Shown piece by piece: positions 1 to 22,145 of a stretch of 64,000 nt of DNA. Each line of letters begins with the position of its first letter. The first letter of the stretch is position 1. The notes beneath the pieces are model-generated. The model worked only from the letters and a program-made list of their open reading frames with translations, had not been told where the DNA came from and ran no database searches. The position numbers and the translations under genes were made by a program. The stretch spans positions 64,098 through 128,097 of the forward strand of contig CAYOPZ010000001.1 in the NCBI GenBank assembly GCA_964406005.1. Reading direction: 5' to 3'. Origin of the DNA: an uncultured Bacteroidaceae bacterium. Its GTDB lineage: Bacteria > Bacteroidota > Bacteroidia > Bacteroidales > SM23-62.

Positions 1-1116
1 GTTCCCTTCCAGGTAGTTGCGCATTTCCCCGTGGGCGCCTGACACCTCGAGCCAGAGCCTGGAGGCAATCCCGGCGCCCAAAAGATACTCCGGGATCATC
101 CTTCTGCCGGTCCCCTTTTCCGTGACCTCCACCTGGGTGTTCAGATATGTCCCCAGGTACAGGTTCAGGTTTCCCCCTGGAAAAAGTGTGAATCCGCTTC
201 GCAGGAGTATCTGGTCAGCCCCGTTCAGGTTCGAATAGTACCCGCCGAGGGCAATATCCAGTGGACCTGCAGTCTGCTTCAGCGCCAGCCCTCCGGCAAA
301 ATCGGAGGCATGCCGTTCGGTCATCGAGACCTGGCTTTGGGACCCGAACCCGTTTCCTCCCTCGCTGATCACCTGGTAGCGTATCCCCAGGTAATGGAAT
401 GAGGGCGAGGCTGTGAATCCACTGCCCAGGGAGAAGGAAGGAGACAGGTAATACTGGTGCTGGCTTACCTTTCGTCCGTCAACGGTGGTTACTGTCAGGC
501 CGTCGTGATAATACAAAAAATCGGTTTTGTTCAGCCGGGTATAGGCCTGTATGACCGAGATGCCCGGCCCGACCCTTTGCTGCAGGCTGAAGCTGGCATT
601 GTGGTAGTTCCTTGTTATGACCTGATACCCGTATGAATAGTCCCCGAAATAATCCTCCGCCCCTTCAGCAAGATCGTCATTCTGCACCCTGCTGTAAAGG
701 TATTCGGCAGACACGGATTCGATGAATTTTGAATCTTCCGGGGGAAGCTTATCTTCCAGTATCCCCGTAAAGGATTTCTTCAGTATTCCGGCCCGGGCTG
801 TCTGTCCGCTGTAAAGATAACTGTAATAAAGATATTCCAGTGCGACGGGATCCCCTCCGCTGAATTCCAGGGCCTTGTTGAAGTGGCCGGCGGCTGCCCG
901 GTAATTTTGCCGTTCAAAATAAGCGATCCCTATCCGCATCCGCAGGTAATAATAATCCACATCCTTCCGGATGGCCTGTTTCCCCTCGTATACCAGCCGG
1001 TCCCAGTCTCCTTCGAGGTACCTGGCATAGGTGGAGGAATCAATCTCGGTAAAAGACTGCGGGAAGGCGTTTCCGGCCGCAATGCCCGCAAGCAGTATTA
1101 TAAGCGCTCTATGCAT
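1..1116 (-). CDS. Secreted TPR-repeat / beta-strand-rich (outer-membrane-like) protein; C-terminus lies beyond the left window edge
   Basis: The ORF track omits it because it is open-ended. I checked all 372 plus-strand triplets from 1 to 1116 and found no in-frame minus-strand stop. Translation from the ATG at 1116-1114 gives MHRALIILLAGIAAGNAFPQ (signal-peptide-like). A TPR-like stretch follows (YYYLRMRIGIAYFERQNYRAAAGHFNKALE), then Y/G/S-rich alternating segments. The start overlaps the upstream gene stop by 19 nt. Confidence 0.6.
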   Translation of the reverse strand, partial: MHRALIILLAGIAAGNAFPQSFTEIDSSTYARYLEGDWDRLVYEGKQAIRKDVDYYYLRMRIGIAYFERQNYRAAAGHFNKALEFSGGDPVALEYLYYSYLYSGQTARAGILKKSFTGILEDKLPPEDSKFIESVSAEYLYSRVQNDDLAEGAEDYFGDYSYGYQVITRNYHNASFSLQQRVGPGISVIQAYTRLNKTDFLYYHDGLTVTTVDGRKVSQHQYYLSPSFSLGSGFTASPSFHYLGIRYQVISEGGNGFGSQSQVSMTERHASDFAGGLALKQTAGPLDIALGGYYSNLNGADQILLRSGFTLFPGGNLNLYLGTYLNTQVEVTEKGTGRRMIPEYLLGAGIASRLWLEVSGAHGEMRNYLEGN

Positions 1117-3296
1117 TTTGCCCTGATATTGAATTTTTCGCCGTTTATTTCGAGCCGGCTGATCCCCTGTTCGGTGAAGGAAACTATGAAATCTATCCGT
1201 TTCAGCACATGTCCCAGAATAAGATTGACTGCCGATGATTCAAGCCGTATCTCCGTTGCCGAAACCTCGTTGTCTATCCAGGCATATCTGAGCTGAAATT
1301 CAGCATCCAGGAATTTCCAGAACGGAGCCAGGAAATCCTGCAGGCTCAGAAACGGCTGTCTGAACAACAGATTCAGGGGATACCTGTCCTTCAGAACCAT
1401 GTCCTGGTAAAATCCCGATTGCAGCTTGAAGCATGCAAGGAATAAGTAATACAGCAACGAGGTCTTGTCACCCTGGAAGTGCGTGAAAAACAAAAGGTTT
1501 CCGTCATTCGTGAAATATGCCCTGGAGCGGGTGCCCGCGCAGGATATACAGGTGTTGTTATAGGGATCCGTCAGTACCTCCCAGTTTTCCCGGCGGCTGC
1601 TTCCGTTACCGATGATGCCGAAACTCATCTTTTCCCCTGGGATCAGGTGCATGGCCTTTTTCAGCAGGTCGTGATTTTCAATATTCGAAACCTTATCATC
1701 TTTCTGGGGATAGTCAAAGGAAGACAGTCTGAATCTCTCATCCTCGTGAAGTATGTAATGGCTGAAAGGGTAGTCCAACGTAACGGAACCTGTGTAGGGA
1801 GTGGACTGGAACTGGAAATGCAGGTGCGGATATGGGGACCTTCCGGAATTTCCGCAACGCCCCAGGACATCCCCTTCCTTTACCCTTTCTCCCGGTTTTA
1901 CCGTTACGGATCCCGGTTTCAGATGGCTCATGGATGTAAAAAGGTAGTCCGAATGCCTTATGATCACTGTATTCCCCCAGTTGTTCTTCAGGTTCACATC
2001 CCCTATGGTGTTGTCGGGAATTTCATCCGTGACATGTTCTACCGTACCTTCTGCCGGTGCCAGGACCTGCTTGTCATAACAGTAGTAATCCTCCGGGCGG
2101 TCCCCGCTTCCGGAATATTGCCCTCCTTCGGTGCCGGTAATCACAAAATCCCATGCATGGCGGAATTCGTCCTTGTGTGTGTGTTCTCCGTCATGGGCCT
2201 GGGAGACGGTCCAGATCCCGTAAAAGGGAAGTCTGACGGGGATCTTGTCCGCGTGCCGGAAACGGATAAGATCGTTGTGGAAGGAGTAGAGGTTCTTCTC
2301 GGGAGTGTTTTGCTGAATACGGACCTCTGAAAGTCTTTCGGAAGCTTTCGCCCTGAATTTCAACGCATAAAGGAATAACAATACAACCACGTTGAACGGA
2401 AGGGAATAGACGGGCAGACTGAAAACCTGAAATATGCCTGAGACACTGATGGTCACCATGGCCACCATGGGTATCAGTATCAGCACCCACAGGTAGGAAC
2501 GGCGGGAGGGAACGATAAAAAACCCTCCCAGGGCGATGGAGGTGAGAATGTAATTGAATCCTATGTAACTGTAGGAAATCTCCGAAATATTGGCGCCTAT
2601 GACCTGGTAAAATACATAGGCCGTATAAAATCCGAGTAGTGAAAGGGTGAAGGATATACGGGAATAATAAAGCAGCCCTATAGCCAGTATCAATCCGGAC
2701 AAAACACTGTACTGGAAAAGAATGGCGCCCAGCGAGATAAGGTATATCCTGAGTGACCGGGTGATCTGCAGACCGTTCCACCACTCGTAAACCGATACAA
2801 GGGTGCTTCCCCCTACGGTATACAGGTCATTTAATGTAAAGATCCCTCTTTCGCTGATCCCCAGCGTTGCAAATTCCCTGGTGGCCAGTGTCATGATCCA
2901 GATTGACAGCAGGAAGGGTATGCTCAGGAAAGGAAGGGCGTATTTCCCGATCACTCCTTGCATGGAAACAGAAACGAGCAGCGTCAGCACGGCCGAAAGT
3001 ATTACAACAAAAACAAGCAGGGGGCCGGGTTGAAAATAAATACCCAGGCCCAGGCCAACAAGCAGGCTGTTGAAACCGAAAAGACCCCTGGAAACGTTCC
3101 TCCTGTCAAAACCCAGCAAAAAGCCTGCAAGATTAGTCGTCAGTACGGAAAGAAGTCCCAGGGAGCCTGCATAGACATCGAAGAAAGTAATCAGAACAAG
3201 GATCAGGGCAAAAAGTCTGTTGTCGGAGAAAAATACCTGTGAATACGAGTTGGCCATCCCTGTCAGAAAAAGCCTGATGTCTTCCCTTTTGATCAT
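1098..3296 (-). CDS. Three-part fusion: urea-transporter (UT)-like polytopic membrane domain, M23 metallopeptidase domain, and an unknown C-terminal domain of about 230 aa
   Basis: 732-aa ORF with an ATG start. The N-terminus (MANSYSQVFFSDNRLFALIL plus many hydrophobic helices) resembles the UT family. The middle carries M23 motifs: RHAWDF, WGNTVIIRH, SHL and GNSGRSPYPHLHFQF (HxH). I do not recognise the C-terminal third. Confidence 0.8.
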   Translation of the reverse strand: MIKREDIRLFLTGMANSYSQVFFSDNRLFALILVLITFFDVYAGSLGLLSVLTTNLAGFLLGFDRRNVSRGLFGFNSLLVGLGLGIYFQPGPLLVFVVILSAVLTLLVSVSMQGVIGKYALPFLSIPFLLSIWIMTLATREFATLGISERGIFTLNDLYTVGGSTLVSVYEWWNGLQITRSLRIYLISLGAILFQYSVLSGLILAIGLLYYSRISFTLSLLGFYTAYVFYQVIGANISEISYSYIGFNYILTSIALGGFFIVPSRRSYLWVLILIPMVAMVTISVSGIFQVFSLPVYSLPFNVVVLLFLYALKFRAKASERLSEVRIQQNTPEKNLYSFHNDLIRFRHADKIPVRLPFYGIWTVSQAHDGEHTHKDEFRHAWDFVITGTEGGQYSGSGDRPEDYYCYDKQVLAPAEGTVEHVTDEIPDNTIGDVNLKNNWGNTVIIRHSDYLFTSMSHLKPGSVTVKPGERVKEGDVLGRCGNSGRSPYPHLHFQFQSTPYTGSVTLDYPFSHYILHEDERFRLSSFDYPQKDDKVSNIENHDLLKKAMHLIPGEKMSFGIIGNGSSRRENWEVLTDPYNNTCISCAGTRSRAYFTNDGNLLFFTHFQGDKTSLLYYLFLACFKLQSGFYQDMVLKDRYPLNLLFRQPFLSLQDFLAPFWKFLDAEFQLRYAWIDNEVSATEIRLESSAVNLILGHVLKRIDFIVSFTEQGISRLEINGEKFNIRAKCIERL

Positions 3297-3312
3297 GCAG
3301 TAGTGCGTTTTT

Positions 3313-4659
3313 TCACTTCAAATGCCCGGGGATCGTCTCCTGTTGCGTGATGTTTTCAATGGTTTCCCGTTTCCGGATGACATACGTTTTCCCGTCTTTG
3401 CCGATCAGGACAACATTGGGCCGCAGGGTGATGAACTGCATCCACTGTGTCATGTTATATGCACCTACCCGCCTGATCACAAAAGGATCGCCCTTCTTCA
3501 GAAGGGGAAAGGCGATGGCATCCCTGATCACATCAATGTTCATACATAGGGGACCGTACAGGGTTGTCTCCTCGAGATGCTCCGAGACAGGCACTGCGGG
3601 ATACACTTCATGTTCGTACCAGAAGGATGTGAACAACAGGTTTACCCCCACATCCACTATGGTTGCCCTGTTACCTCCCGACAGCCGTTTGTTTGCAATC
3701 ACCGATCCCAGAAGAAATCCCGCATCGTCTATCAGGGCGCGTCCGGTTTCAAGGATCAGTATGGGAAGGTTGTGGGGATCCAGCTCGGAATTCAGCAATC
3801 CGGAAGTAATCGCCTCGGCATACTCTTCGAAGGAAGGTGTGGTATCCGTGCCCGGATAATAGGCTCCTTTCAGCGTGTTTCGGGATGCAAAACCTCCGCC
3901 CATATCGATGTATTTGATATGAATCCCGTACTTCTTATGGACACCATGGGCAAGGTCCGCCAGCTTTCCCGCTGCGAGACCGTATGCATCGGACGACATC
4001 ATATAGGTCCCTATATGGGCGTGGATCCCGGCAAGCTCGATCCTGTCATTGATCATGATCCGGTTTATTGCTTCCCATGCATCCCCGTTTTCATAATTGA
4101 ATCCGAAACGGTCCCACATCGGGTACACTCCCGTATCCATGTTCACCCGGACGGCCACCCTGGGTTTTTTCCCCTGGTTCTCCGCAAGCGCCAGGATTGA
4201 ATACATCTCGTCAAAATGGTCGATATGGATAAATGAGTCGTTCCCGATGGCCTTCTTCAGGCCCTCATCCGTCTTGTCCGGACCGTTGAACAGGATCTGG
4301 CTTCCCTTCACCCCGTTGTGTACCGCCTTGTCGTACTCGAAATCCGAAACCACCTCCGCCCATGATCCTTCCTGGTGAAAGATACGGCAAACAGCATCCA
4401 GGTAATTGGTCTTATAGGACCAGGCAAACTGTATCCTCGGGTAGCGGCTCGAAAAAGCATTTTTTGCCCTGCGGTAAGTCTCCCGCATGGTTTTTTCGGA
4501 GATCACGAACAGGGGTGATCCGAACTCTCCGAGCAGGTCTGATACGGAGTGATCTTCAATATGGGTAACCGGTTCCATACGTGTTTTCATACCGAACTTT
4601 CCCGGCATCCCTGCCTGGAGCCTCTTTATATAAGGTCTTTCAAAAGGTTTTTTGGCCAT
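3313..4659 (-). CDS. PLP-dependent decarboxylase, Orn/Lys/Arg/DAP decarboxylase family (fold-type III)
   Basis: 448-aa ORF. Motifs are SYKTN (PLP lysine position), IDMGGGF, ETGRALI and YGPLCMNID. The substrate cannot be read from the sequence. Confidence 0.8.
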   Translation of the reverse strand: MAKKPFERPYIKRLQAGMPGKFGMKTRMEPVTHIEDHSVSDLLGEFGSPLFVISEKTMRETYRRAKNAFSSRYPRIQFAWSYKTNYLDAVCRIFHQEGSWAEVVSDFEYDKAVHNGVKGSQILFNGPDKTDEGLKKAIGNDSFIHIDHFDEMYSILALAENQGKKPRVAVRVNMDTGVYPMWDRFGFNYENGDAWEAINRIMINDRIELAGIHAHIGTYMMSSDAYGLAAGKLADLAHGVHKKYGIHIKYIDMGGGFASRNTLKGAYYPGTDTTPSFEEYAEAITSGLLNSELDPHNLPILILETGRALIDDAGFLLGSVIANKRLSGGNRATIVDVGVNLLFTSFWYEHEVYPAVPVSEHLEETTLYGPLCMNIDVIRDAIAFPLLKKGDPFVIRRVGAYNMTQWMQFITLRPNVVLIGKDGKTYVIRKRETIENITQQETIPGHLK

Positions 4660-4671
4660 GGTTTGTTTTTT

Positions 4672-5718
4672 TTATAATTCTCCAAGTGCCGAGAGCTTTT
4701 CAAATTCCCCGACATCCGTGATCAGGTCGTAGGAATACCTGATGAACATTTTTCCCGTCTCGTATTTCGTGTAGGTTTTCACGTCCATACCCAGCGCCAG
4801 TTTTACCAGCGCTTCTGGCAGGTTCTGTCCCGCACCGACCGCCAGGTACACCCATGCCGGTATGCGCGGGTTTATCTCTATGACATACAATTCGTTTTCA
4901 TGCGATTTAATGATCTCCAGTTCCATGCCTCCCCTCCATTTCATGTCTGAAATGAGCTTGCGGGTCATTTCGAGCAATCTATCGTCATCCAGCGTGATCC
5001 CCGCCCATGCTTTCCCTTTGTCCGTAATATACTGCTTACGCATGGGTACCGCTCCGATTGTATTCCCTTTCCCGTCGCCAAGGGCTGCTACATTGACCTC
5101 GGTGCCCCGGACATACTCCTGTATGATCACCGGGAGCCCCCATTTGGCAACGATCTCGTTATAATGCATTTTTACCTGTTCGGGATTATAGGCCAGGTAG
5201 GCATCATAAAATTTACCCTTGACCATCAGGGGGTACTCGAAATCCTCTTTCAGTTCCCCGATTTCCTTGTGGCTGGAAACGGGCTTGCTGAACGGAACCC
5301 TGAGACCGTATTTCTTCCCGAAAACCGGGAGATTGGACTTATGCCTTTCCTCGAATTGCCCGAGGGTAGGCAAAAAAGTGCAAATCCCCGCATTTTTCAG
5401 CCTGCCCTCCGATTTCATGAAAGCATACAATTCGGCATCGAAATTCGGGATCAGCAGGTCAATGCGGTCCTTCCCGTGTATTTCCAATATCCGTTGAACA
5501 AGAACATCCGTGCCGTCAGAGGGATAAGGTACCCTGTAGCTCCTGTCCACCACACCGTGCATATAAACGGCAGGCTCGAGGTTTTCATAGGCCAGCCCGA
5601 CGATGCGGGCCTTAAAATCCTGTGATTCACGGATGCCCCTTATGACCGGCACCCCCGGGCCCGGGTTGTCCGTATTGTTAAGTCCGGTCAGCGCAACTGT
5701 GATCTTCTTCCTATTCAT
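4672..5718 (-). CDS. ATP-grasp domain ligase (carboxylate-amine/peptide ligase type)
   Basis: The layout resembles ATP-grasp enzymes: YPLMVKGKFYDA, IIQEYVRGTEVNV, ELYVIEINPRIPAW. I prefer the ATG at 5718 (MNRKKITVAL) over the TTG at 5727 used in the ORF track. This ATG overlaps the last codons of the upstream PqqD-like gene. Confidence 0.75.
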   Translation of the reverse strand: MNRKKITVALTGLNNTDNPGPGVPVIRGIRESQDFKARIVGLAYENLEPAVYMHGVVDRSYRVPYPSDGTDVLVQRILEIHGKDRIDLLIPNFDAELYAFMKSEGRLKNAGICTFLPTLGQFEERHKSNLPVFGKKYGLRVPFSKPVSSHKEIGELKEDFEYPLMVKGKFYDAYLAYNPEQVKMHYNEIVAKWGLPVIIQEYVRGTEVNVAALGDGKGNTIGAVPMRKQYITDKGKAWAGITLDDDRLLEMTRKLISDMKWRGGMELEIIKSHENELYVIEINPRIPAWVYLAVGAGQNLPEALVKLALGMDVKTYTKYETGKMFIRYSYDLITDVGEFEKLSALGEL

Positions 5719-5959
5719 CTTCCTCAATCAGCCGGAATTGCCGCAGCATTCCTATGAAATCATAGTAATATTTTTCAAAACCGGCGATGTCTATTTCGTA
5801 CTTACCGGTCATGGCTTCAGAGATTTGCTCTGCAGATTTTCCCTCCTTCAGGTGCTGAAGAATCTCCCGGCCGACAGGATTGACCGAGTAGGATTCCCCG
5901 CTGGTCGGATCGAATATAAAACCGTTCTCGCTGACGGCCATATTGCTTTTTATTTTCAT
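5711..5959 (-). CDS. PqqD-family small protein (peptide chaperone / RRE-like)
   Basis: 82 aa. VNPVGREILQHLKEGKSAEQISEAMTGKYEIDIAGFEKYYYDFIGMLRQFRLIEE matches the PqqD-fold pattern I know (ligand-binding beta strands followed by a winged-helix-like helical part). It is the first gene of the operon. Confidence 0.65.
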   Translation of the reverse strand: MKIKSNMAVSENGFIFDPTSGESYSVNPVGREILQHLKEGKSAEQISEAMTGKYEIDIAGFEKYYYDFIGMLRQFRLIEEDE

Positions 5960-6071
5960 GTGTAAGTGTTATGATAAAATCGGCATTATTCACCTGCCCG
6001 CAACCTGATACACACATGACATTGCTTCCACCCGTATATTTTCGCTATAATTTAATGATTTTATCCGGAAT

Positions 6072-6620
6072 TTATTCCAGTCCGCTGCGGGATGCATGAA
6101 TATACCAGGCCTTCCTGTGATTCATTGATGCCTTGAGCAGATTCTGGTAGACCATACGAATATCCTCATTGTCAACCTCCCTGTCCAGTGCATCTTCCAG
6201 GTCGGCAATGTCCATATCCTCAATCTGCAAACCTGCCCTGACGGCATCCTCATACGAAGCACTCCCTTCTTCTACCAGCCTTATATAAAGATCCCTGAAC
6301 CGGGGGTCAGAGAATTCCCCGGTTTTGTGATTTTCGGCCGGGTCTTTCAGTTCATACCTGTCTAACAGAGCCTTTACCGAAGACGTATGCTGTTTCTCGC
6401 TCTCCCTGATGTTTTTAAACGCAGGTAATGTGTATTTTTCTGAAAATGCAAGGTAGACATCATGTGCCAGGAATTCCTCCTCCCTCATTTGCCTGAGGCT
6501 TTGTATTTCCTCCCGGGACAGATCTTCTTTGGAAAGCCCCGTTAAACACTGGGCATCGGTCGCGGCATGCATGTGCAGCGCCAGGACAAACACGATAAAT
6601 GTAAATCTGTACGTTTTCAT
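6072..6620 (-). CDS. Secreted ferritin-like DUF2202-type protein
   Basis: It has a signal peptide. REEEFLAHDVYLAFSEKYTLPAFKNIRESEKQHTSSVKALLDRY matches the DUF2202 ferritin-like pattern from memory. Confidence 0.6.
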   Translation of the reverse strand: MKTYRFTFIVFVLALHMHAATDAQCLTGLSKEDLSREEIQSLRQMREEEFLAHDVYLAFSEKYTLPAFKNIRESEKQHTSSVKALLDRYELKDPAENHKTGEFSDPRFRDLYIRLVEEGSASYEDAVRAGLQIEDMDIADLEDALDREVDNEDIRMVYQNLLKASMNHRKAWYIHASRSGLE

Positions 6621-6818
6621 ATTTTGATTTTTTAAAGGTGAATTCTCATATTAGACCATGAGACTATAAAACGGTTTATTTATATATTTCTATATTTATA
6701 TGTTTTAAAACATTCCGTTGCGTACATTTTTATAAATGAAATATTAAACCTTTTCCAATTATAATTGTCCTATAGGATAAAAAAGATCTCTCCGGTCAAC
6801 TTCAAAAAAAACGAATCA

Positions 6819-7469
6819 ATGAAAAAGCAATCCGTCCTCCTTCGTTCACTGTCTTTATCAATGCTGGTATTTTTAGTCATGACCGCCTGTGCGCAAACTC
6901 CGGATACGGAAATCGACAGGAAGGTTCGGGCTTTCCTGGACAGTAATCCGAGAAGAAATTACAATATGAATGTCCCCCGGGCAGACGGAAAATTGTTGCA
7001 CGATATAATCCTTGAAAACAACTATAAAAGCGCCCTGGAGATCGGTACGTCAACGGGCGTATCCGGAATATGGATCGCCTGGGCCCTCAGCAAGACAGGA
7101 GGGAAGCTGATCACCGTCGAGATCGATGAAAACCGTTACAGACAGGCCCTGGAGAATTTCGAGAAGGTGGGCCTTTCCGACTATATAGATGCCAGGCTGG
7201 CCGATGCGCATGACCTGGTGCCCGCCCTTGAGGGGCCCTTCGATTTCGTTTTCAGCGATGCCGACAAGAACTGGTACCGGAATTACTTCATTGCGGTCGA
7301 TCCGAAGCTGGTTGTGAACGGATGCTACGCCACGCACAATGTTTCCGACAGGGGCTACAGACAGAACTCGGCTTACCTGGATTTCCTGAGACAGCTCCCC
7401 AATTATGAAACCACCGTTAATAACAACGGATCGGGAATGGCCATCTCTTACAAGAAATCGGCAAAATAA
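6819..7469 (+). CDS. Secreted class I SAM-dependent O-methyltransferase (caffeoyl-CoA OMT-like family 3)
   Basis: LEIGTSTGVSGIWIAWAL is a SAM-binding glycine-rich motif, followed by FDFVFSDADK. I prefer the ATG at 6819 (MKKQSVLLRSLSLSMLVFLVMTACAQ, signal or lipoprotein-like) over the TTG at 6765. Confidence 0.7.
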   Translation: MKKQSVLLRSLSLSMLVFLVMTACAQTPDTEIDRKVRAFLDSNPRRNYNMNVPRADGKLLHDIILENNYKSALEIGTSTGVSGIWIAWALSKTGGKLITVEIDENRYRQALENFEKVGLSDYIDARLADAHDLVPALEGPFDFVFSDADKNWYRNYFIAVDPKLVVNGCYATHNVSDRGYRQNSAYLDFLRQLPNYETTVNNNGSGMAISYKKSAK

Positions 7470-7475
7470 ACCGGG

Positions 7476-7838
7476 TTACCTGTCATCGTTATGACCGTCA
7501 TTCTCTTCCCGGTCATATTTGCAGCACAGGGGTAATTTGTCATAGGCCTCCTGGCTGGCTTTGAACATTTCGGTATCGTGGCCCGCATCTGCAATGGCCA
7601 TATGGATCTTTTGCAGGTCTGCCTTCCCCGGGTCAAAGGTGACTTCAAACATTTTTGACTCGATGTTCCAGTCTGCAGATTTTACGCCATCAACAGAACC
7701 GGCGGCCTTTTCAATACGCGCCTTGCACATTTCGCAATTCCCGCTCACCCTGAACTTTTCCGTTTTCACATCCTGTGCAAAGGCTGAAATTCCGAATGCC
7801 ATAAGCATCATTAAACTCAGTAAAATTCTTGTCTTCAT
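7476..7838 (-). CDS. Periplasmic heavy-metal-associated (HMA-like) domain protein
   Basis: Signal peptide MKTRILLSLMMLMAFGISAFA starts at the ATG at 7838. It carries an HMA-like FRVSGNCEMCKARIEKAAGSVDGV and a C-terminal LCCKYD. It sits immediately downstream of the Cu ATPase. Confidence 0.7.
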   Translation of the reverse strand: MKTRILLSLMMLMAFGISAFAQDVKTEKFRVSGNCEMCKARIEKAAGSVDGVKSADWNIESKMFEVTFDPGKADLQKIHMAIADAGHDTEMFKASQEAYDKLPLCCKYDREENDGHNDDR

Positions 7839-7868
7839 GATTAAAATATTTAGGTTAAACATCATTCC

Positions 7869-10244
7869 CTATTGTCTTCTCAGTCTCAATGCATTGGATA
7901 TCACCGAAACCGAACTGAAGCTCATTGCCGCAGCTGCGATAATCGGGCTTAGCAGAATGCCGAAGAACGGGAAAAGAATCCCGGCAGCCACCGGAACCCC
8001 GACGGAGTTGTAAGCGAATGCGAAAAACAGGTTCTGCCTGATGTTCCGCATGACCTTCCGGCTCAGGTCCCTTGCCCGAACGATCCCGTTAAGGTCCCCC
8101 CTGACCAGGGTGATCTCGGCGCTCTGCATGGCGATGTCGGTCCCCGTTCCCATGGCTATTCCGACATCCGCCAGTTCAAGCGCCGGGGCATCGTTTATGC
8201 CGTCGCCTGCCATTGCTACTTTTTTCCCCGATTCCTGGAATTCTTTTACCTTTTTAAATTTATCTTCGGGTAAACAATCCGCCTGGTATCCGTCGAGTTT
8301 CAATTCTTCTGCAACCGCCCTGGCCGTGTATTCATTATCACCTGTCAGCATATGCACTTCGACATCCATATTTTGCAGGGCTTTAATTGCTCCGGCTGAG
8401 GTAACCTTGATGGTGTCTGCGACACTTACGATCCCTTCCACCTTTTTCCCTGCCAGTAAATACATGACCGTTTGTCCCGTCGACTGCCACTGCTTTACCA
8501 ATTTTCCCGCTTCGCCGTTAAGTTCTGCGCCAAAGTCTTCCAGCAGCCGGCTGTTCCCCAGCCCGATCTTTCTGCCTTCGTGAATCCCGGTGACCCCTTT
8601 CCCGGTGACCGATTCGAAGTCACTGACCTTCCCGGGTTCAATACCCCTGTCTCTGGCCCCTTTCACAATGGCTTCTGCAACGGGGTGCTCGCTGTATGCA
8701 TCGACACTTGCCGCCAGACGGAGGATCTCCTTGTCGGATGATCCCGAAAATGACGCGTAATTCTTCAGAGCCGGCTTTCCTTCGGTAATCGTGCCGGTTT
8801 TATCGATGATCAGGACGTCAACCTTATTCATTTCCTCTATTGCGCTGGCATCCTTTACGAGGACCCCCGCCTGGGCGCCCCTGCCGGTCCCCACCATGAC
8901 GGACATGGGTGTGGCCAGCCCCAGGGCACAGGGACAGGCAATGATCAGGACCGAGACGGCATTGACAAAAGCATAGACCAGTGCCGGTTCAGGTCCCCAG
9001 AGGGCCCATACGGCAAACGTCACCAAGGCGGTCCCGATGACGATCTGTACGAAGTATTTCGCCACCACGTCGGCCAGTTTCTGGATGGGGGCGCGGGACC
9101 GGCCGGCTTCATTGACCATATCTATAATCTGTGCCAGCAGCGTGTCGGAACCGACTTTTTCCGCCTTCATCTCGAAGGAGGTCTTGCCGTTGATCGTTCC
9201 CCCGGTGACCCTGTCATTTTCCGTCTTATCGGCGGGTATGGGTTCTCCGGTGATCATGCTTTCATCCAGAACGGCATTTCCGCTTGTAATGATCCCGTCC
9301 ACGGGTACCTTCTCCCCGGGCCTGACCCTCAGGACATCGCCGATCACGACATCCTCAAGGGGGATTTCCTCTTCCCTGCTGTTCCGGATGACCCTTGCCA
9401 CCGGCGGCACGAGGCCCAAAAGCGCCTTAATGGCGGAATTTGTCTTGCTGTGCGCCCTTAATTCCAACACCTGTCCTATCAGGACAAGCGTTAGAATGAC
9501 CGCCGCAGCTTCGAAATATAAATGTACGTTACCCTGCTCATCCTTGAACTGAGACGGGAATAAGCCCGGGAACAAAAGGCCCAGTACACTGAACAGATAT
9601 GCCGCACCGACACCTATGGAGATCAGGGTCCACATATTCGGCGAATATCGCCGTATGGAGCTCCATCCCCTTTTGAAAAAATCCCGTCCTGAATAAAAGA
9701 CCACGGGGGTGGCAAGGATGAATTCGATCCAGGACCAGAATTTTTCAGAAGCAAGTTTTTCCGGGTTTAAAAACGGGATTAACCCGGACATGGCAATAAT
9801 AAATAAAGGGATGCTCAATGCCAGGGCGATCCAGAATTTTATCCGCATTTTCCGGTAGGCCCGCTCCTCCTGGCTGCTTTCCTCACCTTTCTCCGGGACA
9901 AGGTTCATGCCGCACTTGGGACAGCTCCCCGGTCCTTCCTGCCTCACCTCGGGGTGCATGGGACAGTAGTAAATGCCCTTGCCTGTCCCTGTTGACTGCT
10001 CCCTGTGAACTGCCGGATCCCCGTGAGATCCATTTATGTGATGCCCGTGGCCACTGGCTGATGTATGTTCCACATGATGAGGAGAACCCGCCGATTCGGA
10101 TTTTTCCCTGCTCAGAGCCTTTCCTTCGGCGGTTTCCTCCCCCAGAGGTACCAGGTGCATGTTGCAGACGGGGCAGTCCCCGGGTTCATCGTATACTTTT
10201 TCCCCCTCACAACGCATCGGGCAGATATATTGCTCCTTGGTCAT
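7869..10244 (-). CDS. copA: Copper/silver-translocating P1B-type ATPase with two N-terminal CPxC-type heavy-metal-binding domains
   Basis: 791 aa. Motifs are CPC ([13 protein letters not shown]), [21 protein letters not shown] and GDGINDAP. The N-terminus has [28 protein letters not shown] and [26 protein letters not shown]. Confidence 0.9.
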
Positions 10245-10264
10245 TTTCTTAATACTGCCTTATT

Positions 10265-10483
10265 TCAGGAGATACTTTGTTTCTGATCAAGGTACTCCTC
10301 CTTGCCTATTTCACCCCTGGCATACCTCTTGTTCAGAATGTCAAGAGCGGAGTTTTTATTACCCCCTGCAGGATTGCCGGAATTGACAAACCTGGCGATT
10401 ATCCACAGGGCGAGAAATAGGATGCCTGCAAAAAGAAACCATCCGACACCCATTCCCCAATGAAATCCATTCATGTGATACAT
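10265..10483 (-). CDS. Small membrane protein with SHOCT-like C-terminal domain
   Basis: 72 aa with one hydrophobic helix, then ILNKRYARGEIGKEEYLDQK (SHOCT pattern). Confidence 0.6.
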   Translation of the reverse strand: MYHMNGFHWGMGVGWFLFAGILFLALWIIARFVNSGNPAGGNKNSALDILNKRYARGEIGKEEYLDQKQSIS

Positions 10484-10515
10484 GATGATCCTCCTTTTAT
10501 TAATTTATTTATAAG

Positions 10516-11076
10516 TTATTGCTGTTCCGACTGTTCACCTTTCGGCTGCGGGCTTGATTCCGGCAAAAAACCTTCCTGGTGCATCATCCGCATCATCATC
10601 TGCATCATATCCGGATGCTGGGCAATCACACCGGTCAGCTGCATGCAAATGGTGGAATCCGTATTACACTGGTCCATCAGGTGCCCCATCTCCTGTAAAA
10701 TCTCCTCATTAACACTGTCACCGGATGCCATGCCCATCATGTTGCCGTATCCGGTCCCCATGTGAGAGGCTTGAGTATTGGTTCCATCGTATCCCATCAT
10801 CCCGTTGCCGTCCCCCATATGGCCATTCTGCATATGGTTACCTTCCAGAAGGTTATTCATCATCACTTGATTTCCTCTCATCATGGTCATGGCATGGGCA
10901 TTCCCGCTCATCTGATCCATGAATTCCATCATGAGATTGTGATCATTCATTATGGTGTTGAATACATCTTCCCTCGTATCCCTGTTCTTCAGCAGGGTTT
11001 CGACATCACCGCTCTGTCCGAGGACGTTAACCGTGAACAGGGTGATCATTGATAAAATCATTGCTGTTGTTTTCAT
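10516..11076 (-). CDS. Secreted Met/His/Gly/Asn-rich protein, putative periplasmic Cu(I)/Ag(I) binder
   Basis: It has a signal peptide. Met/His-rich stretches include AHAMTMMRGNQVMMNN, HMQNGHMGDGNGMMGYDG, HMGTGYGNMMGMASGD and HPDMMQMMMRMMHQ. Confidence 0.65.
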   Translation of the reverse strand: MKTTAMILSMITLFTVNVLGQSGDVETLLKNRDTREDVFNTIMNDHNLMMEFMDQMSGNAHAMTMMRGNQVMMNNLLEGNHMQNGHMGDGNGMMGYDGTNTQASHMGTGYGNMMGMASGDSVNEEILQEMGHLMDQCNTDSTICMQLTGVIAQHPDMMQMMMRMMHQEGFLPESSPQPKGEQSEQQ

Positions 11077-11191
11077 GATATTGAGTCTTTAATTGTTAAT
11101 ATTCCAAGATGCCTTCATAGCATTCACTTGCCGGATCTGCGTGTCCCGTACGGGCCGGGATTCCTCTGGTCCGGCATTAATATGAATGCAT

Positions 11192-11368
11192 TCAAACCGG
11201 CATTAATTTCATATTGCATACCGGACAGTTCCCGGGATGGCTGTAGGTTTTGTCCCCCTCGCAACCCATGGCGCACCGGTATTTAGTAGTCTTTTCTTCA
11301 CTTTCGCCGGATCCGGAATGAGATATCCCGGTATCCTTAATATTACTATGACTTTTTTTCCATTTCAT
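11192..11368 (-). CDS. Stand-alone 58-aa heavy-metal-binding-domain protein (below the ORF-track size cut-off)
   Basis: Manual translation, checked codon by codon: MKWKKSHSNIKDTGISHSGSGESEEKTTKYRCAMGCEGDKTYSHPGNCPVCNMKLMPV, then a stop. The last 30 aa repeat the CopA and CzcB N-terminal motif (C-x-M-x-C ... CPxCxMxL). Confidence 0.55.
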   Translation of the reverse strand: MKWKKSHSNIKDTGISHSGSGESEEKTTKYRCAMGCEGDKTYSHPGNCPVCNMKLMPV

Positions 11369-11455
11369 GATCTTTGATTTTTAGATTTAAATATCCTGAA
11401 ATTCAAGTTCGTTTATTTTGTTCTCTAAAATTACAAAGTCTTAGTAGTCATTGCC

Positions 11456-11486
11456 TTATATAATTATGGGTATGTTTTATATAATT
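11456..11486. repeat. Direct repeat TTATATAATT x2 spaced 21 bp centre to centre
   Basis: TTATATAATT occurs at 11456-11465 and 11477-11486. Both lie in the 245-bp AT-rich gap between the DUF302 gene and the 58-aa HMBD ORF. Confidence 0.6.
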
Positions 11487-11613
11487 CCCGGCGTTAGAAT
11501 AAAATTATTTCTCACGACAATGAATTTGCTTTCAATCCTGCCTGATTTGCCAGTACAATCGCATTTCAACGGGCAAAAGGTATCTTGAGGACCTTCCATT
11601 ATGATTCTTCTGA

Positions 11614-12003
11614 TTATGCCAGTGAATCAATTACTTTCTGAAGTTTTTTCTTAATGTCATCTGCAATTACGGCCAGGTCCGGATTCGTTATGGAAATCAT
11701 TGACGCAACAGGGTTTACTGCGGCAACCTCGGTTGCCCCTGCTTTGGTTTCCTGGACAATCACGTTACAGGGAAGCATAGTCCCTATCTTATCCTCAAGT
11801 AAAAGTGCTTTATGTGCATATGGAGGGTTGCATGCGCCGAGGATTTTATACTGACGGAAATCCACATCCAGCTTTTCCTTCAGCTTTTCATGTATGTCTA
11901 TCTCGCTTAATACACCAAAACCTTCATCCTGCAGAGCTTTTTTTACCTTCCGGACAGCCTCGTCAAAGCTGTCCTTAACTGTTTTATCCAAATAGTATTT
12001 CAT
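11614..12003 (-). CDS. DUF302 domain protein
   Basis: 129 aa. GFGVLSEIDIHEKLKEKL...YKILGACNP is the DUF302 pattern. Confidence 0.7.
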   Translation of the reverse strand: MKYYLDKTVKDSFDEAVRKVKKALQDEGFGVLSEIDIHEKLKEKLDVDFRQYKILGACNPPYAHKALLLEDKIGTMLPCNVIVQETKAGATEVAAVNPVASMISITNPDLAVIADDIKKKLQKVIDSLA

Positions 12004-17098: not shown

Positions 17099-18331
17099 TT
17101 ATTTACCCGTTAAATACATAATGAAGGAGGTGGCTGCCTCATGATCGGCCCTCGCTTTTTCTGTTTCAAGGGCGTATTTGAGCACCTGCCGTTCCATCCG
17201 GAGCACTTCTTCGAAATTTGCGCTGTTTGCCGCATAATCAACCTGGAGCAGATCCACGGATTTCCTCGCCAGGTCGGATTGTTCCCGGTTAAGCTTTATT
17301 CGCCTTTCGGCATCCCTGAGATCGCGCCAGGCACCTTCGAACAGGGTTTCAAGCAGGTTGGTTTTGTCAATTTTTTCTTCCTGCCTGGCCGCTTCCATGT
17401 AGATGGCCTCCCCAACCTTGGCCCGGTATTTTTCCCGGTAGAGAGGTATTGAAATCCCGACGGTTGGAAAAACAAAGGCATCCTTCCCTGCCAGGTTGTT
17501 CTCTCCCTTCCCGGTCACCATGTATTCGAACCCTATTGAAAATCCGGGCAGCCCGGACTTCCTTGCCGCCTCCTGTCCGGACTTCAGGGATTCAATCTGG
17601 CGATCCAGGCTCAGCAGCCGGTGGTTCCCTGCCCGGATACTGTCGAGAAGTGCATCTTTATCCCCGGGCAATGCAGTAAGCCGGAGGACATCGGGCAATT
17701 CAACGGTTTCATCGGTTTCGCTGTTAAGCAGATTGTTGAACCTGGTTGTCTGGACACCCATATTATCTTTAAGCAGGGCCAGCTGGTTCTCCAGGTCCCC
17801 GATCTCTATCTCCAACCTGTAGTTATCCACCGCCGATACCAGGCCCGTTTCAATCTTGACAAGCACCAGGTTCCGGAATGTATTCAGGATTTCCAGGTTT
17901 TCCCCGGTAATGCGGATGGCCTGCTGCGTAACATACAGATTGTAATAAGCATCCCGGATATCGTTAAACAGGCTTGATTTTGCTTCTTCGAAGGCTTCGT
18001 ATTTCGCCTCCGCCATCCGGGTTGCGGCATCCGCCCTGTCTCCCAGCATCCCGAACCAGGGAAACATCTGGCTTGCGGAGAATTTGAATTCCTGAGGGCC
18101 CATCCGGGTTTCAACCGGCCTGATGAAATAGCCGAACATCACTTTCGGGTCCGGCAGGGCTTTGACCTGCGGGATGTTTTCCAGGGCGGCAAGATATTCG
18201 TTGAATTTCACCTTAAGCGCAGCATTGTTCATGGCCGACCTTTCCAGGTAAGTGTCGAGGTAATCCTGCGATGCTGCGCTGAATGAAATGAAGGAAATAA
18301 GCAGAACGAATATGAATTTACTGGTCTTCAT
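17099..18331 (-). CDS. TolC-family outer-membrane efflux protein (CzcC-like)
   Basis: 410 aa with a signal peptide and two OEP-type coiled repeats. It overlaps the stop of the RND pump gene by 14 nt. Confidence 0.8.
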   Translation of the reverse strand: MKTSKFIFVLLISFISFSAASQDYLDTYLERSAMNNAALKVKFNEYLAALENIPQVKALPDPKVMFGYFIRPVETRMGPQEFKFSASQMFPWFGMLGDRADAATRMAEAKYEAFEEAKSSLFNDIRDAYYNLYVTQQAIRITGENLEILNTFRNLVLVKIETGLVSAVDNYRLEIEIGDLENQLALLKDNMGVQTTRFNNLLNSETDETVELPDVLRLTALPGDKDALLDSIRAGNHRLLSLDRQIESLKSGQEAARKSGLPGFSIGFEYMVTGKGENNLAGKDAFVFPTVGISIPLYREKYRAKVGEAIYMEAARQEEKIDKTNLLETLFEGAWRDLRDAERRIKLNREQSDLARKSVDLLQVDYAANSANFEEVLRMERQVLKYALETEKARADHEAATSFIMYLTGK

Positions 18332-21300: not shown

Positions 21301-22145
21301 ACGTGGGCGACATCCCTGAGCATGATCGGCACGTTATCGTTCACGGCGACCACGCTTTCTTCGAGGTCTTCAATGCTTTTTATATATCCCAGCGCCCTGA
21401 CCAGGTATTCCGCCCGGTTGAATTCTATCGTCCTGGCTCCGATATCAAGGTTGCTGTTTTTTACCGCCGCCATGATCTGGGCGACGTTCACCCCGTGGGC
21501 CTTCATTGCATCCGGGTCGATATCGACCTGGTATTCCTTGATAAATCCCCCGATGGAGGCCACCTCGGATACCCCTTCCGCGGAAGTCAGGGAATACCTC
21601 ACATAAAAATCCTGGATGGTACGCAATTCCTGCGGGTCCCATCCGCCCGAAGGATTCCCTTCTTTATCCCTCCCCTCCAGGGTATACCAGTAAATCTGTC
21701 CCAGGGCGGTCGCATCCGGACCAAGCGCGGGAGTGGCACCTTCCGGAAGTGTCCCTGCAGGGAGTGAGTTGAGCTTTTCCAGGATCCTGGTCCTGCTCCA
21801 GTAGAAATCCACATTGTCATTGAAAATCACGTAGATGCTGGACAGCCCGAAGATGGAATTGCTGCGGATGGTTTTCACCCCGGGGATTCCGAGCAGCGAG
21901 GTGGTAAGGGGATAGGAGATCTGGTCCTCGATGTCCTGGGGGGATCTTCCGGGCCATTCGGTGTATACGATTTGCTGGTTTTCCCCGATGTCCGGGATGG
22001 CGTCCACGGGAACCGGGTCCCGGGGCAGCACGCCCAGATCCCAGCCGAAGGGTGCGGTGACCAATCCCCATGCAATGAACCCTATCAGGACGATGAAGGT
22101 CACCAGCCTGTTTTCAAGGAAAAAACGAATGATTCTGTTTAACAT
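18318..22145 (-). CDS. CusA/CzcA-family heavy-metal efflux RND pump, oversized variant (1275 aa)
   Basis: The N-terminus is typical (MLNRIIRFFLENRLVTFIVL). HME-RND-like periplasmic and TM segments run throughout, with an extra hydrophobic block in the middle. Confidence 0.9.
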   Translation of the reverse strand: MLNRIIRFFLENRLVTFIVLIGFIAWGLVTAPFGWDLGVLPRDPVPVDAIPDIGENQQIVYTEWPGRSPQDIEDQISYPLTTSLLGIPGVKTIRSNSIFGLSSIYVIFNDNVDFYWSRTRILEKLNSLPAGTLPEGATPALGPDATALGQIYWYTLEGRDKEGNPSGGWDPQELRTIQDFYVRYSLTSAEGVSEVASIGGFIKEYQVDIDPDAMKAHGVNVAQIMAAVKNSNLDIGARTIEFNRAEYLVRALGYIKSIEDLEESVVAVNDNVPIMLRDVAHVNYGPATRRGGLDKGGAEAVGGVVVARYGANPMDVIRNVKDKIAEIAPGLPSKTLDDGSVSKVTIVPFYDRTGLIKETLGTLEEALTLEILISIIVVIVLVVNLRASFLISSLLPIGVLMTFIVMRNFGVDANIVALSGIAIAIGVMADVGIVFTENIVRHLEMPENRDARGKRLLTVIYDATVEVAGAVLTALTTTILSFLPVFAMQAAEGKLFKPLAFTKTFAMVSGLVIGLIIIPTLANILFALRNRKISTRRIWSIILIAIGLVAGVIDRSIIPFALVAVGMNNLLEDRWPENKRHFVKYINIAVALLVVLFYLTGIWMPLGAQNSLTANLLFVISIITIVLGSLMLIVRYYRSILRWSLANKWKFLAIPIVFILFGIVSWQGVDRMFGFMPHFIKETGAWKSVARVMPGVGKEFMPALDEGSFLLMPTTMPHSGVQENIDVIRMLDQKVNSIPEVESVVGKWGRVNSALDPAPISMFENIINYKPEYILDEDGHRMRFRVDRDESYVLKDGGRYNPVTDGFRLIDRDNLIEDKKGEYFRQWRDNIASPDDIWDQIVKEANIPGLTSAPKLQPIQTRLIMLQTGMRAPMGIKVFGPDLQTIEKTGFELERNLKQVEGIEPRSVFADRVVGKPYMELKINRGATSRYGLSIKDLQTAISGTVGGMQLSTTVEGRERFPVRVRYAREFRDNPEDLKKILIPTPAGAQVPLGELAEVTYLRGPQMIKSENTFLVGYVIFDKKPDYAEVDVVENARKFIDEKIESGELVIPPGVSFVFTGNYENQIRATKRLMLVVPLSLILIFLILYFQFRSVVTSSMIFTGIFVAFSGGFLMMWFYGQHWFMNFSVGGINIRDMFDMHPINLSVAVWVGFVALFGIATDNGVIIGTYLQQVFGRNKPRTREEVRKSVLEAGSIRVRPAMMTAAAAIIALIPVLTSTGKGSDIMVPMAIPSFGGMIFQVLTIFVVPVLYSMWQENKITRKPVETSKTEYNEDQ

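Follow-up and report, generated by a model that had tools for sequence, protein, structure and literature searches.

A conserved six-gene operon of Bacteroidales as a candidate pathway of ligation, decarboxylation and release at a membrane pore

At the left end of a 64,000-nucleotide (nt) stretch of DNA from an uncultured Bacteroidaceae bacterium (contig CAYOPZ010000001.1, positions 64,098 to 128,097 of the forward strand; the whole stretch is called "the window" below), a run of genes on the minus strand encodes a PqqD-family protein, an ATP-grasp ligase, a pyridoxal phosphate (PLP)-dependent decarboxylase, a pore of the urea transporter (UT) fold fused to an M23 metallopeptidase, and an envelope protein. 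A first-pass annotation of this DNA had read these genes as parts of a single machine without an assignable pathway. Here we report that the first four genes form a core that is shared by sediment Bacteroidales and unrelated bacteria, describe a leader-like tail on the decarboxylase, and weigh what the operon might do. The features are listed below; position 1 is the first letter of the window, and sizes are in amino acids (aa).

5711..5959, minus strand: gene 1, PqqD-family protein of 82 aa, a recognition element (RRE) for peptides that are made by ribosomes and modified after translation (RiPPs), lasso B1 type (PF05402)
4672..5718, minus strand: gene 2, ATP-grasp ligase of 348 aa (PF15632, PF02655)
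3313..4659, minus strand: gene 3, alanine-racemase-fold PLP decarboxylase of 448 aa, FigC/FslC-like (PF02784, PF00278)
4588..4659, minus strand: leader-like N-terminal tail of gene 3, residues 1-24, MAKKPFERPYIKRLQAGMPGKFGM, with F6-x-x-P9-x-I11, nine residues, and K21-F-G
1098..3296, minus strand: gene 4, UT-fold pore, M23 metallopeptidase and C-terminal beta domain, 732 aa (PF03253, PF01551)
2283..3269, minus strand: UT-fold membrane domain of gene 4, residues 10-338 (from the alignment to the Desulfovibrio vulgaris UT)
1797..2225, minus strand: M23 peptidase domain of gene 4, residues ~358-500, predicted to be cytoplasmic (PF01551, five invariant residues)
1101..1784, minus strand: C-terminal domain of gene 4, mostly beta, residues 505-732 (from an AlphaFold2 (AF2) model)
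1..1116, minus strand: gene 5, the first 372 of 444 aa, cut by the window edge (full-length copy P0391)
748-1053, minus strand: three TPR-like helical pairs of gene 5, residues 22-123, preceded by a signal peptide (from an AF2 model)
1-729, minus strand: outer-membrane beta-barrel of gene 5, residue 130 onward (from an AF2 model and fold matches)

The coordinates that the first-pass annotation gave for genes 1 to 5 are exact for every gene, including the start of gene 2 and the spacing between neighbors. Genes 1 and 2 overlap by 8 nt, and the ATG of gene 2 (5718-5716) lies inside the end of gene 1 (...GAA GAT GAA TAG in one frame, ATG AAT AGG in the other). A database copy of gene 2 (P0121) has 348 aa, which favors this ATG over a TTG at 5727. 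Genes 2 and 3 are 12 nt apart (4660-4671) and genes 3 and 4 are 16 nt apart (3297-3312). Genes 4 and 5 overlap by 19 nt (1098-1116); gene 5 begins with an ATG at 1116 and continues beyond the left edge of the window.

That the operon extends past this edge had been expected, and it does: gene 5 has 444 aa in full, and a sixth gene comes next in every sufficiently long related locus. Gene 5 loses its final 72 residues at the window edge, and gene 6 lies wholly outside the window. The tight coupling of the genes holds, and the count of five must be raised to six. (A leftward extension of the contig by exact-protein look-up gave a 2.9-kb Logan contig only; the full gene 5 came from a homology search.) The domain assignments were also sound: PqqD, ATP-grasp, decarboxylase, UT and M23 all have Pfam scores above the gathering cutoffs, and the TPR and barrel parts of gene 5 are seen in its model. 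In an NCBIfam scan, none of the window operon proteins scored above any curated cutoff, so none of them is in a named equivalog family. Scans of nt 1-12000 for Rfam families, promoters and terminators found nothing above chance.

Conservation of the operon and of its core

We scanned a UT::M23 alignment against one genome per GTDB species, and 295 relatives matched; among database proteins, 4349 relatives were found at E ≤ 1e-10. The best 80 of the 295 are all from uncultured Bacteroidales or Bacteroidota, plus a few Marinimicrobia, and we read the gene order at these loci by tblastn with the window proteins. The order is PqqD, ATP-grasp, decarboxylase, UT::M23, gene 5 and gene 6. All six genes are present at 52 of the 80 loci, with no change of order or strand at any of them, and each of the 28 incomplete loci ends at the end of a contig. 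Even the Marinimicrobia loci retain the six genes, among flanking genes that are unrelated. The arrangement is no chance juxtaposition, and the co-occurrence that the first-pass annotation had suggested looking for across Bacteroidota is present in 52 of 52 genomes with enough contig.

Identity to the window proteins is 64-82% for the ATP-grasp ligase (63 genomes), 59-84% for the decarboxylase, 52-74% for UT::M23, 43-73% for the PqqD protein and 26-54% for the barrel of gene 5. By this measure the enzymes are much better conserved than the envelope parts, as would be expected for metabolism under purifying selection, and the operon appears to be vertically inherited.

Additional genes occur at some of these loci. 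In roughly 23-25 of them, gene 6 is followed by a gene for a ~262-aa protein with a C-terminal sorting domain for type IX secretion (for example, L082 14172-14963); its N-terminal domain has no family assignment. At four loci (L069 4750-5571; L073, L075 and L076), the gene for this protein interrupts the operon after the ATP-grasp gene and before that of the decarboxylase. At one locus (L034 3603-4004), a gene for a four-helix bundle separates the decarboxylase from UT::M23 and breaks the tight spacing, and a remnant of it is found at another (L038 253-426). By eye, the bundle is like the 23S rRNA intervening-sequence protein type.

Outside Bacteroidota, a plain homology search with the ATP-grasp ligase returned close orthologues only, and the distant systems were reached by a representative search with a look-up of genomic context. 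An exhaustive ATP-grasp search gave 225 clusters (50% identity, E < 1e-30), which include tandem double ATP-grasp proteins of ~710 aa. We read the context of nine ATP-grasp relatives, and eight of them have as neighbors a PqqD gene and a gene for a decarboxylase of the alanine-racemase fold. A UT-fold protein comes next in six of these eight, and its C-terminal fusion partner varies by lineage: SIR2 (L083 and L096), SIR2 plus GNAT (L088), or M23 (L094, from a contig with 26% GC). Another of the six, an 886-aa UT fusion (L089 8233-10893), has a zinc-ribbon SIR2-like middle, one more transmembrane helix and a dienelactone-hydrolase-type domain. At L092, the contig stops a few codons into the next gene, whose start is like a UT N-terminus, and at L085 the UT fusion is replaced by a soluble protein of 637 aa. 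Two kinds of fusion join the soluble enzymes themselves: PqqD::ATP-grasp (P0329) and ATP-grasp::decarboxylase (P0284). Contigs with the core range from 26% to 73% GC.

We also scanned metagenomes with a search that was seeded on decarboxylase motifs only. There were at least 600 matches, and the following counts come from those of the 80 best loci with enough contig. A UT gene lies 3' of the decarboxylase gene at 61 of 69 loci, an ATP-grasp gene lies 5' of it at 56 of 60, and a PqqD gene lies 5' of the ATP-grasp gene at 48 of 49. In the 50 cases with a complete UT fusion, the partner is M23 (36 cases), SIR2 (12 cases) or something else (2 cases), so that 48 of 50 are fused to one of these two hydrolases. 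The two types differ in other ways (L097-L176). M23-type systems have a single ATP-grasp (27 of 27) and a TPR gene downstream; SIR2-type systems have a double ATP-grasp, either fused or split (8 of 9), and their TPR protein, of roughly 450-1150 aa, usually has its gene upstream of PqqD. The gene set is not rare (4349 database relatives, 295 species-level genomes and at least 600 metagenome matches).

Because of the strict synteny, the two types of fusion and the recurrence of the core in unrelated lineages, we conclude that the genes form one functional unit. The same three lines of evidence back the earlier reading of the genes as one machine.

Several of the distant loci have features of their own. 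The extra helix of the L089 fusion would put its dienelactone-hydrolase-type domain outside the cytoplasm, and this locus also encodes a 202-aa protein with a signal peptide between its PqqD and ATP-grasp genes. At L085 (8001-12583; also L086 and L087), an 871-aa ATP-grasp::decarboxylase fusion with its own PqqD gene is followed by the 637-aa soluble protein, which has a weakly adenylate/guanylate-cyclase-like C-terminus (E = 0.05). A solitary ATP-grasp paralogue with 45% identity is found beside GcpE and PorZ genes on a Bacteroidota-like contig (L084 8001-9056) and has no PqqD, decarboxylase or UT partner.

The leader-like tail and its predicted partner

Gene 1 matches the PqqD family (PF05402) with E = 3.5e-10 and 40.5 bits (the cutoff is 23.4), as the first-pass annotation had proposed for this 82-aa reading frame. 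With a profile of the gene 1 family, the best matches in the PDB are TfuB1 (6jx3, 1.3e-14) and TbiB1 (5v1u, 2e-13), versus only 0.009-0.016 for authentic PqqD. The NCBIfam models for lasso PqqD proteins score below their cutoff on gene 1 (30.5 versus 70). Going by these profiles, the gene 1 protein is nearest to the lasso B1 leader-binding proteins. PqqD-like B1 proteins bind the leaders of lasso peptides and hand them to the processing enzymes (PMC5067487).

A search of the 300 nt that precede the PqqD gene at 56 loci, and of the intergenic gaps, showed no conserved small open reading frame, which bears out the earlier remark that no precursor gene is visible. Where the intergenic gaps are unusually long, they are filled by the type IX tail protein or by the four-helix-bundle insertion, not by a precursor. 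Neither the lasso B2 protease nor the C cyclase nor a short precursor gene was found in the window operon or in ~160 related loci.

A leader-like sequence is instead found on the decarboxylase. This protein has an N-terminal extension of ~33 residues that is absent from FigC, LysA and BtrK (the alignments to FigC and LysA begin at residue 34), and none of the PDB chains of the decarboxylase fold matches the tail segment. The consensus of the tail is meKk.FERP.Ikkl.AGmPsKFGMk. Its F-x-x-P-x-I motif (FERPxI) occurs in every one of 65 related genomes, and [YFW]xxPx[ILVM] is present in 70 of the 72 complete decarboxylase N-termini from metagenome loci; the remaining two have YEPMTL. A lysine lies a short way downstream of the motif in 65 of these 70, exactly nine residues past the I/L in the examples that we read, and beyond KFG the sequence varies from tail to tail. 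In lasso leaders, YxxPxL occupies positions -17 to -12 and a threonine is conserved at -2, a spacing equal to that of the tail (PMC10368454).

From these comparisons, the PqqD protein is likely to bind the decarboxylase's own tail, which is its predicted partner. Such binding would explain why no precursor gene accompanies the operon, and both fusion architectures fit with it.

A conventional RiPP pathway would make other use of the same parts. Its precursor would be encoded elsewhere in the genome, or the tail would be a precursor that is fused to the enzyme and consumed. The RRE would present the peptide to the ATP-grasp ligase and the decarboxylase for modification, and M23 would be the leader peptidase that cuts at the K-F/G junction, whose position corresponds to the cleavage site of lasso leaders. 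M23 enzymes prefer bonds beside glycine, enzyme-fused precursors exist in the borosins, and the RRE is of the lasso B1 type. Also, the tail copies the motif of lasso leaders together with the distance from this motif to the -2/+1 cleavage junction (PMC10368454). We nevertheless consider this quite improbable, given the lack, at the loci searched, of a conserved small reading frame and of the lasso B2 and C enzymes. In addition, SIR2 substitutes for M23 yet is no protease, a peptide product would be unfit for the UT pore, the residues beyond KFG vary in a way that a core peptide does not, and it would be costly to use up a 448-aa enzyme stoichiometrically.

The PqqD protein has a tail of its own. 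In Bacteroidota, the C-terminus is acidic and variable in length (..LIEEDE, ..LLDEEHEN) and lies over the ATP-grasp start codon (5711-5730 in the window; orthologues L002-L081), and it is absent in the high-GC and low-GC relatives. We considered whether this acidic C-terminus could be a LysW-like carrier end and rejected the idea: conservation does not extend to the last residue, distant members have no such tail, and the end is blocked in P0329.

Enzymes, pore and envelope components

Gene 2 matches ATPgrasp_Ter (PF15632; 47.4 bits versus 29.1, 2.1e-12) and ATP-grasp_3 (PF02655; 32.9 bits versus 23.2, 8.4e-08). Five residues (K167, Q200, E281, N283 and R285) are invariant or almost so in 61 diverse ATP-grasp members. 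In the PDB, the family profile best matches 2pn1 (8e-27), an entry that was deposited as the large subunit of carbamoyl-phosphate synthase, and carbamoyl-phosphate synthetase (1e-22), then PurD (1e-9) and biotin carboxylases; D-Ala-D-Ala ligase (Ddl, 1e-6) and RimK (1e-4) are distant. No graspetide ligase is among the best 60 of 73 PDB matches. By this search, the enzyme is not of the types that the first-pass annotation had named as models (graspetide, LysX and PGM1), nor of the RimK type; its closest solved relatives are 2pn1, carbamoyl-phosphate synthetase and the biotin carboxylases.

Gene 3 matches both domains of the ornithine/diaminopimelate (DAP)/arginine decarboxylases (Orn_Arg_deC_N, PF02784, 98.5 bits; Orn_DAP_Arg_deC, PF00278, 45.7 bits). 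Its closest PDB match is N-citrylornithine decarboxylase (7kh2, 2.7e-57), followed by DAP decarboxylase (3.4e-38) and BtrK (7e-27). The segments SYKTN, GGG and GPLCM, with the PLP lysine and the catalytic cysteine loop, are invariant across divergent members. Named families do not capture the protein: the FslC model (NF041039) scores 229.7 with a cutoff of 500, and the LysA model (TIGR01048) scores 218.6 with a cutoff of 297.9. The cysteine loop reads CMNID, where FigC has CMQHD and the DAP decarboxylase 1twi has CESSD. We considered and discarded an authentic DAP decarboxylase on the basis of the LysA cutoff and the changed substrate loop.

The clade of FigC includes SbnH, AcsE, MccE, BtrK, the DAP decarboxylases and D-ornithine decarboxylase, and apart from the last two kinds, the substrates are amino acids that are conjugated to larger groups (PMC7857480). 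In FigC, H357 and R387 are the predicted contacts of citrate (PMC7857480), and the residues of gene 3 that align with them are isoleucine and glutamine. Because of these replacements, the conjugated group is probably not citrate. The earlier proposal that an amino acid is ligated and then decarboxylated as a conjugate fits with a FigC/FslC-like enzyme; this chemistry, like the product, is an inference.

Metal-handling genes surround the window operon. A DUF2202 gene (6072-6620), a secreted O-methyltransferase (6765-7469), a periplasmic HMA protein (7476-7865) and a copper-type P-type ATPase (7869-10244) lie to its right, and farther away are a long reading frame (18318-22145) for a putative RND-type pump and an HMA-type AraC regulator (22776-23357). 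Among the relatives, an HMA-AraC gene directly adjoins the PqqD gene on its upstream side, in either orientation (31 genomes by clustering of open reading frames and ~39 by tblastn; L002-L033, L059-L077). ArsR-type regulators flank two high-GC loci.

These neighbors, along with the kinship to FigC, raise another possibility: the PqqD protein and the tail might be just a docking pair, derived from lasso B1 and its leader, that holds together enzymes acting on free small molecules, in the manner of FslA and FslC (which make N-citrylputrescine). Such enzymes could yield an N-acyl-diamine or a symmetric diacyl-diamine, which might be a metal chelator, and the UT::hydrolase could serve for recycling or uptake. 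The decarboxylase is nearest to FigC/FslC, and the tandem ATP-grasp of the SIR2-type systems suits two successive ligations, as in rhizoferrin. The HMA-AraC genes upstream of PqqD, the copper ATPase, HMA protein and DUF2202 gene beside the window cassette, and the ArsR-type regulators would also fit. Yet the predicted citrate contacts are not retained, neither a TonB-dependent receptor nor an MFS or RND exporter belongs to the conserved gene set, and a metal complex could not get through the UT pore. The metal neighborhood is also absent from another Bacteroidales clade and from the Marinimicrobia loci, and the HMA-AraC gene of the window lies 17 kb from the operon, beside the putative RND pump. 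Overall, we view the docking-pair model as unlikely.

In gene 4, the UT domain (PF03253; 212.5 bits, 9.9e-63) aligns end to end with residues 17-334 of the 340-residue Desulfovibrio vulgaris UT and retains the UT motifs SQVFF, GLFGFN and LPxxSxPF (the last of these twice). Urea transporters recognize urea at four polar positions, Q(Pa)-T(5a)-T(5b)-Q(Pb) (PMC11589576). The corresponding positions in gene 4 are Q-S-S-A: both threonines are serine, the Q/E of the Pb helix is A191, and the motif is more eroded in the sister systems. Because these polar positions are altered, and further eroded in the sisters, urea is an unlikely permeant. The equivalog model for urea transporters (TIGR03441) scores 123.7 on gene 4, with a cutoff of 274.6, and authentic urea transport was set aside on account of this cutoff and the motif changes.

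A pore of this kind could also bring something in. A small neutral amide- or ureide-type compound would enter via the barrel and the UT pore, the hydrolase would immediately cleave and so trap it, drawing the flux inward as urease does behind urea channels, and the ATP-grasp ligase and the decarboxylase would convert the products. Bacterial UT channels are passive and bidirectional and normally feed a cytoplasmic hydrolase (Yut and UreI work with urease). A fusion of pore and hydrolase suits trapping, the pore stays constant while the type of hydrolase changes, and the barrel of gene 5 is like the uptake channels FadL, OmpG and TodX. Still, this idea seems rather improbable to us: the substrates of M23 and SIR2 are peptides or are borne on proteins and cannot traverse a UT pore, a leader-binding RRE and a tailed decarboxylase would have no role, and an ATP-using ligation straight after a hydrolysis would be odd for catabolism.

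The M23 domain (PF01551; 58.2 bits, 9.8e-16) has the five metal-binding and catalytic residues expected of it, H374, D383, H458, H491 and H493, which are invariant in 58 orthologues and are also kept in the M23-type system of the low-GC contig L094 (41% identity). In the AF2 model of gene 4, most of this domain has a pLDDT (AF2's per-residue confidence) of ~82-96, with lower values at its start near residues 370-380. A fold search with the model matched the M23 part to the LytM domains of DipM and EnpA and to the M23 proteins ShyA and Csd1-Csd2. The C-terminal beta domain of ~230 aa is modeled with a pLDDT of mostly 76-92, dipping to ~62 near residues 640-660. It has no Pfam match at E ≤ 1, and the top 50 of the whole-chain fold search are UT and M23 structures only.

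Which side of the membrane these domains lie on matters for their function. The alignment to the Desulfovibrio UT shows no transmembrane helix after the UT domain, and the termini of the UT fold face the cytoplasm. SIR2 and GNAT domains depend on NAD+ and acetyl-CoA, which are cytoplasmic cofactors. Because no helix follows the UT domain, and because SIR2 and GNAT occupy the equivalent position in sister systems, we predict that the M23 domain is cytoplasmic and shares its compartment with the three soluble proteins. Such a location would exclude the usual role of M23 enzymes in peptidoglycan, so that the cross-bridge activity cited in the first-pass annotation would not apply. SIR2 enzymes are N-epsilon-acyl-lysine deacylases, which fits with cleavage of an isopeptide bond at a side-chain amine.

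The cell wall could still be involved through its precursors. On UDP-MurNAc-peptides, the DAP-decarboxylase-like enzyme might decarboxylate the free D-center of meso-DAP in the stem, and the ATP-grasp ligase and M23 might add or remove a side-chain residue; stem-peptide chemistry is known for LysA (meso-DAP), for the ATP-grasp D-aspartate ligase (the lysine side chain) and for M23 (cross-links). Or the operon might be a conflict or defense system, as the swapping of M23, SIR2 and alpha/beta-hydrolase domains on a constant scaffold resembles effector variation. But no Mur, flippase or penicillin-binding-protein genes are linked to the operon, and PADLOC gave no matches for four window proteins and three UT fusions. 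The high conservation of the enzymes and their apparent vertical inheritance are unlike arms-race systems. Both ideas leave the RRE and the tail unexplained, and we regard them as very improbable.

The last two genes would connect the pore to the outside. The AF2 model of full-length gene 5 (P0391, 444 aa) has a mean pLDDT of 89.2 and a pTM (AF2's overall fold score) of 0.83 and consists of TPR helices followed by a beta-barrel. In a fold search, the barrels FadL, OmpG and TodX match it best, and BcsC, which has TPR plus barrel, is at rank 6. The TPR matches in Pfam are below threshold, and gene 5 homologues terminate in ...SWKF. The earlier description of gene 5 as a TPR/beta-rich secreted protein was right about both kinds of structure; rather than generically secreted, the modeled protein is an outer-membrane barrel with N-terminal TPR. 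The product of gene 6, beyond the window edge, is a ~207-aa TPR protein that has a signal peptide and is predicted to be periplasmic. Periplasmic TPR proteins accompany both the M23 and the SIR2 types of system.

A proposed pathway and its relation to known systems

We propose that the four-gene core is an undescribed pathway, set within a six-gene operon that spans the envelope, in which a ligation is followed by decarboxylation of the conjugate and by hydrolytic release at a pore. We give this proposal a probability of about 40%. Comparative evidence shows that the parts function together and that the leader-like tail exists; the remaining mechanism we infer. The B1-like PqqD protein would bind (Y/F)xxPx(I/L) on the decarboxylase tail and so hold the ligase and the decarboxylase together. 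The ATP-grasp ligase would join a carboxylate and an amine as an amide, with one partner keeping a free alpha-amino-acid end. Candidate conjugates include N-acyl-ornithine, N-acyl-lysine, N-acyl-DAP, or a glutamate or aspartate linked through its side chain, and the partner is perhaps tethered to the conserved lysine nine residues past the motif. The FigC-like enzyme would then decarboxylate the conjugate, and a cytoplasmic hydrolase at the mouth of the pore (M23 here; SIR2, SIR2 plus GNAT, or an alpha/beta-hydrolase elsewhere) would cleave it. Finally, facilitated diffusion through the UT-fold pore would take the small product out of the cytoplasm, and the TPR protein and the TPR-barrel would take it past the periplasm and outer membrane.

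Several points weigh against this proposal. The substrate, the product and the PqqD-tail interaction are all putative. Ligation, decarboxylation and hydrolysis in sequence amount to mere decarboxylation, unless the conjugation has a further purpose. The nearest relatives of the ATP-grasp ligase are bicarbonate-activating enzymes, so a simple carboxylate-amine ligase may be the wrong reading. UT pores are very narrow, which implies a permeant that is small and probably uncharged, and a diamine or an amino acid would be charged. The urea-recognition residues are poorly conserved in the family, so the UT domain may not be a product pore at all, and AF2 modeled the UT part with low confidence. A few loci have no UT gene (L085, and the three metagenome loci L102, L116 and L125). 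SIR2 enzymes move the acyl group to ADP-ribose and do not free it, and perhaps M23 and SIR2 are not equivalent. Also, the conserved tail lysine is replaced by arginine in the ATP-grasp::decarboxylase fusion of L085.

The role of that lysine is central to a bolder variant, in which the decarboxylase would be its own carrier. The precursor peptide would be built into the enzyme: the ATP-grasp ligase would tether the substrate to the RRE-bound tail as an N-epsilon-acyl-lysine, the tail would work as a swinging arm, the enzyme would decarboxylate its own cargo, and SIR2 or M23 would release the product into the pore. An acyl-lysine tether would make sense of a SIR2 lysine deacylase as the alternative to M23, and it is weakened by the arginine in the fusion. 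We consider this variant unlikely. If true, it would be a new kind of self-carrier, channel-coupled biosynthesis, and would give the first physiological role of a cytoplasmic M23 enzyme and of UT-fold pores outside urea transport.

If the broader proposal of ligation, decarboxylation and release is correct, then RiPP recognition elements would recruit whole enzymes by leader-like tails, M23 peptidases would have cytoplasmic jobs, pores of the urea transporter fold would be outlets or inlets for a biosynthetic product, and a small metabolite would be common in anoxic-sediment Bacteroidales and in many other bacteria. The tail motif together with the B1-like RRE makes a concrete hypothesis that is directly testable.

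As the first-pass annotation had stated, there is no assignable pathway: none was found in PADLOC, NCBIfam or the literature. In the literature, we found no description of the combination of PqqD/RRE, ATP-grasp, decarboxylase, urea transporter, M23 and SIR2. For these proteins, every test of sequence membership beyond the level of broad superfamilies failed. The nearest known systems each have in common with it a single element of the logic or a single homologous component.

With bacterial urea channels that work with urease (Yut, UreI) and with the solved Desulfovibrio UT, the operon shares the fold, most of the pore-helix motifs and the pairing of a passive pore with a cytoplasmic hydrolase. 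The hydrolase of the operon differs in being covalently fused and in being a peptidase or deacylase, and the recognition positions of the pore are changed. TPR-barrel exporters (BcsC, PgaA and AlgK/AlgE) likewise have a periplasmic TPR domain followed by an outer-membrane barrel. Gene 5 is much smaller (444 aa), is FadL/OmpG-like and has no sequence-family match, and the operon has no glycosyltransferase or polymer synthase.

The LysW/LysX system is similar in concept, in that an ATP-grasp enzyme forms an isopeptide to a small carrier and the product is released by hydrolysis after modification. The operon has no LysW zinc-ribbon carrier with an EDWGE tail, and its ATP-grasp ligase is far from RimK/LysX. 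In the butirosin pathway (BtrI, BtrJ, BtrK and BtrG), an ATP-grasp enzyme loads an amino acid onto a carrier, the tethered residue is the substrate of an alanine-racemase-fold decarboxylase, and a protecting group is taken off afterward by another enzyme. That pathway uses an acyl carrier protein and the operon has none; BtrK is more distant from gene 3 than FigC and LysA are; and in the operon, the release would be by an M23 or SIR2 domain that is fused to a membrane pore.

The rhizoferrin system of Francisella (FslA/FigA with FslC/FigC) shares the logic of ligation and then decarboxylation, the homology to FigC and the C-M-x-x-D loop. Its ligase is an NIS (siderophore) synthetase and that of the operon is an ATP-grasp enzyme, the citrate contacts differ, and the fsl locus has no counterpart of the RRE, the tail, the UT::hydrolase or the TPR-barrel. 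Lasso B1 proteins and their leaders resemble gene 1 and the tail in the PqqD profile, in the (Y/F)xxPx(I/L) motif and in a conserved residue nine positions on. In the operon, this "leader" is the N-terminus of a 448-aa enzyme, lysine takes the place of Thr(-2), and there is no B2 or C. Set beside these systems, the mechanism stands a real chance of being of a new kind.

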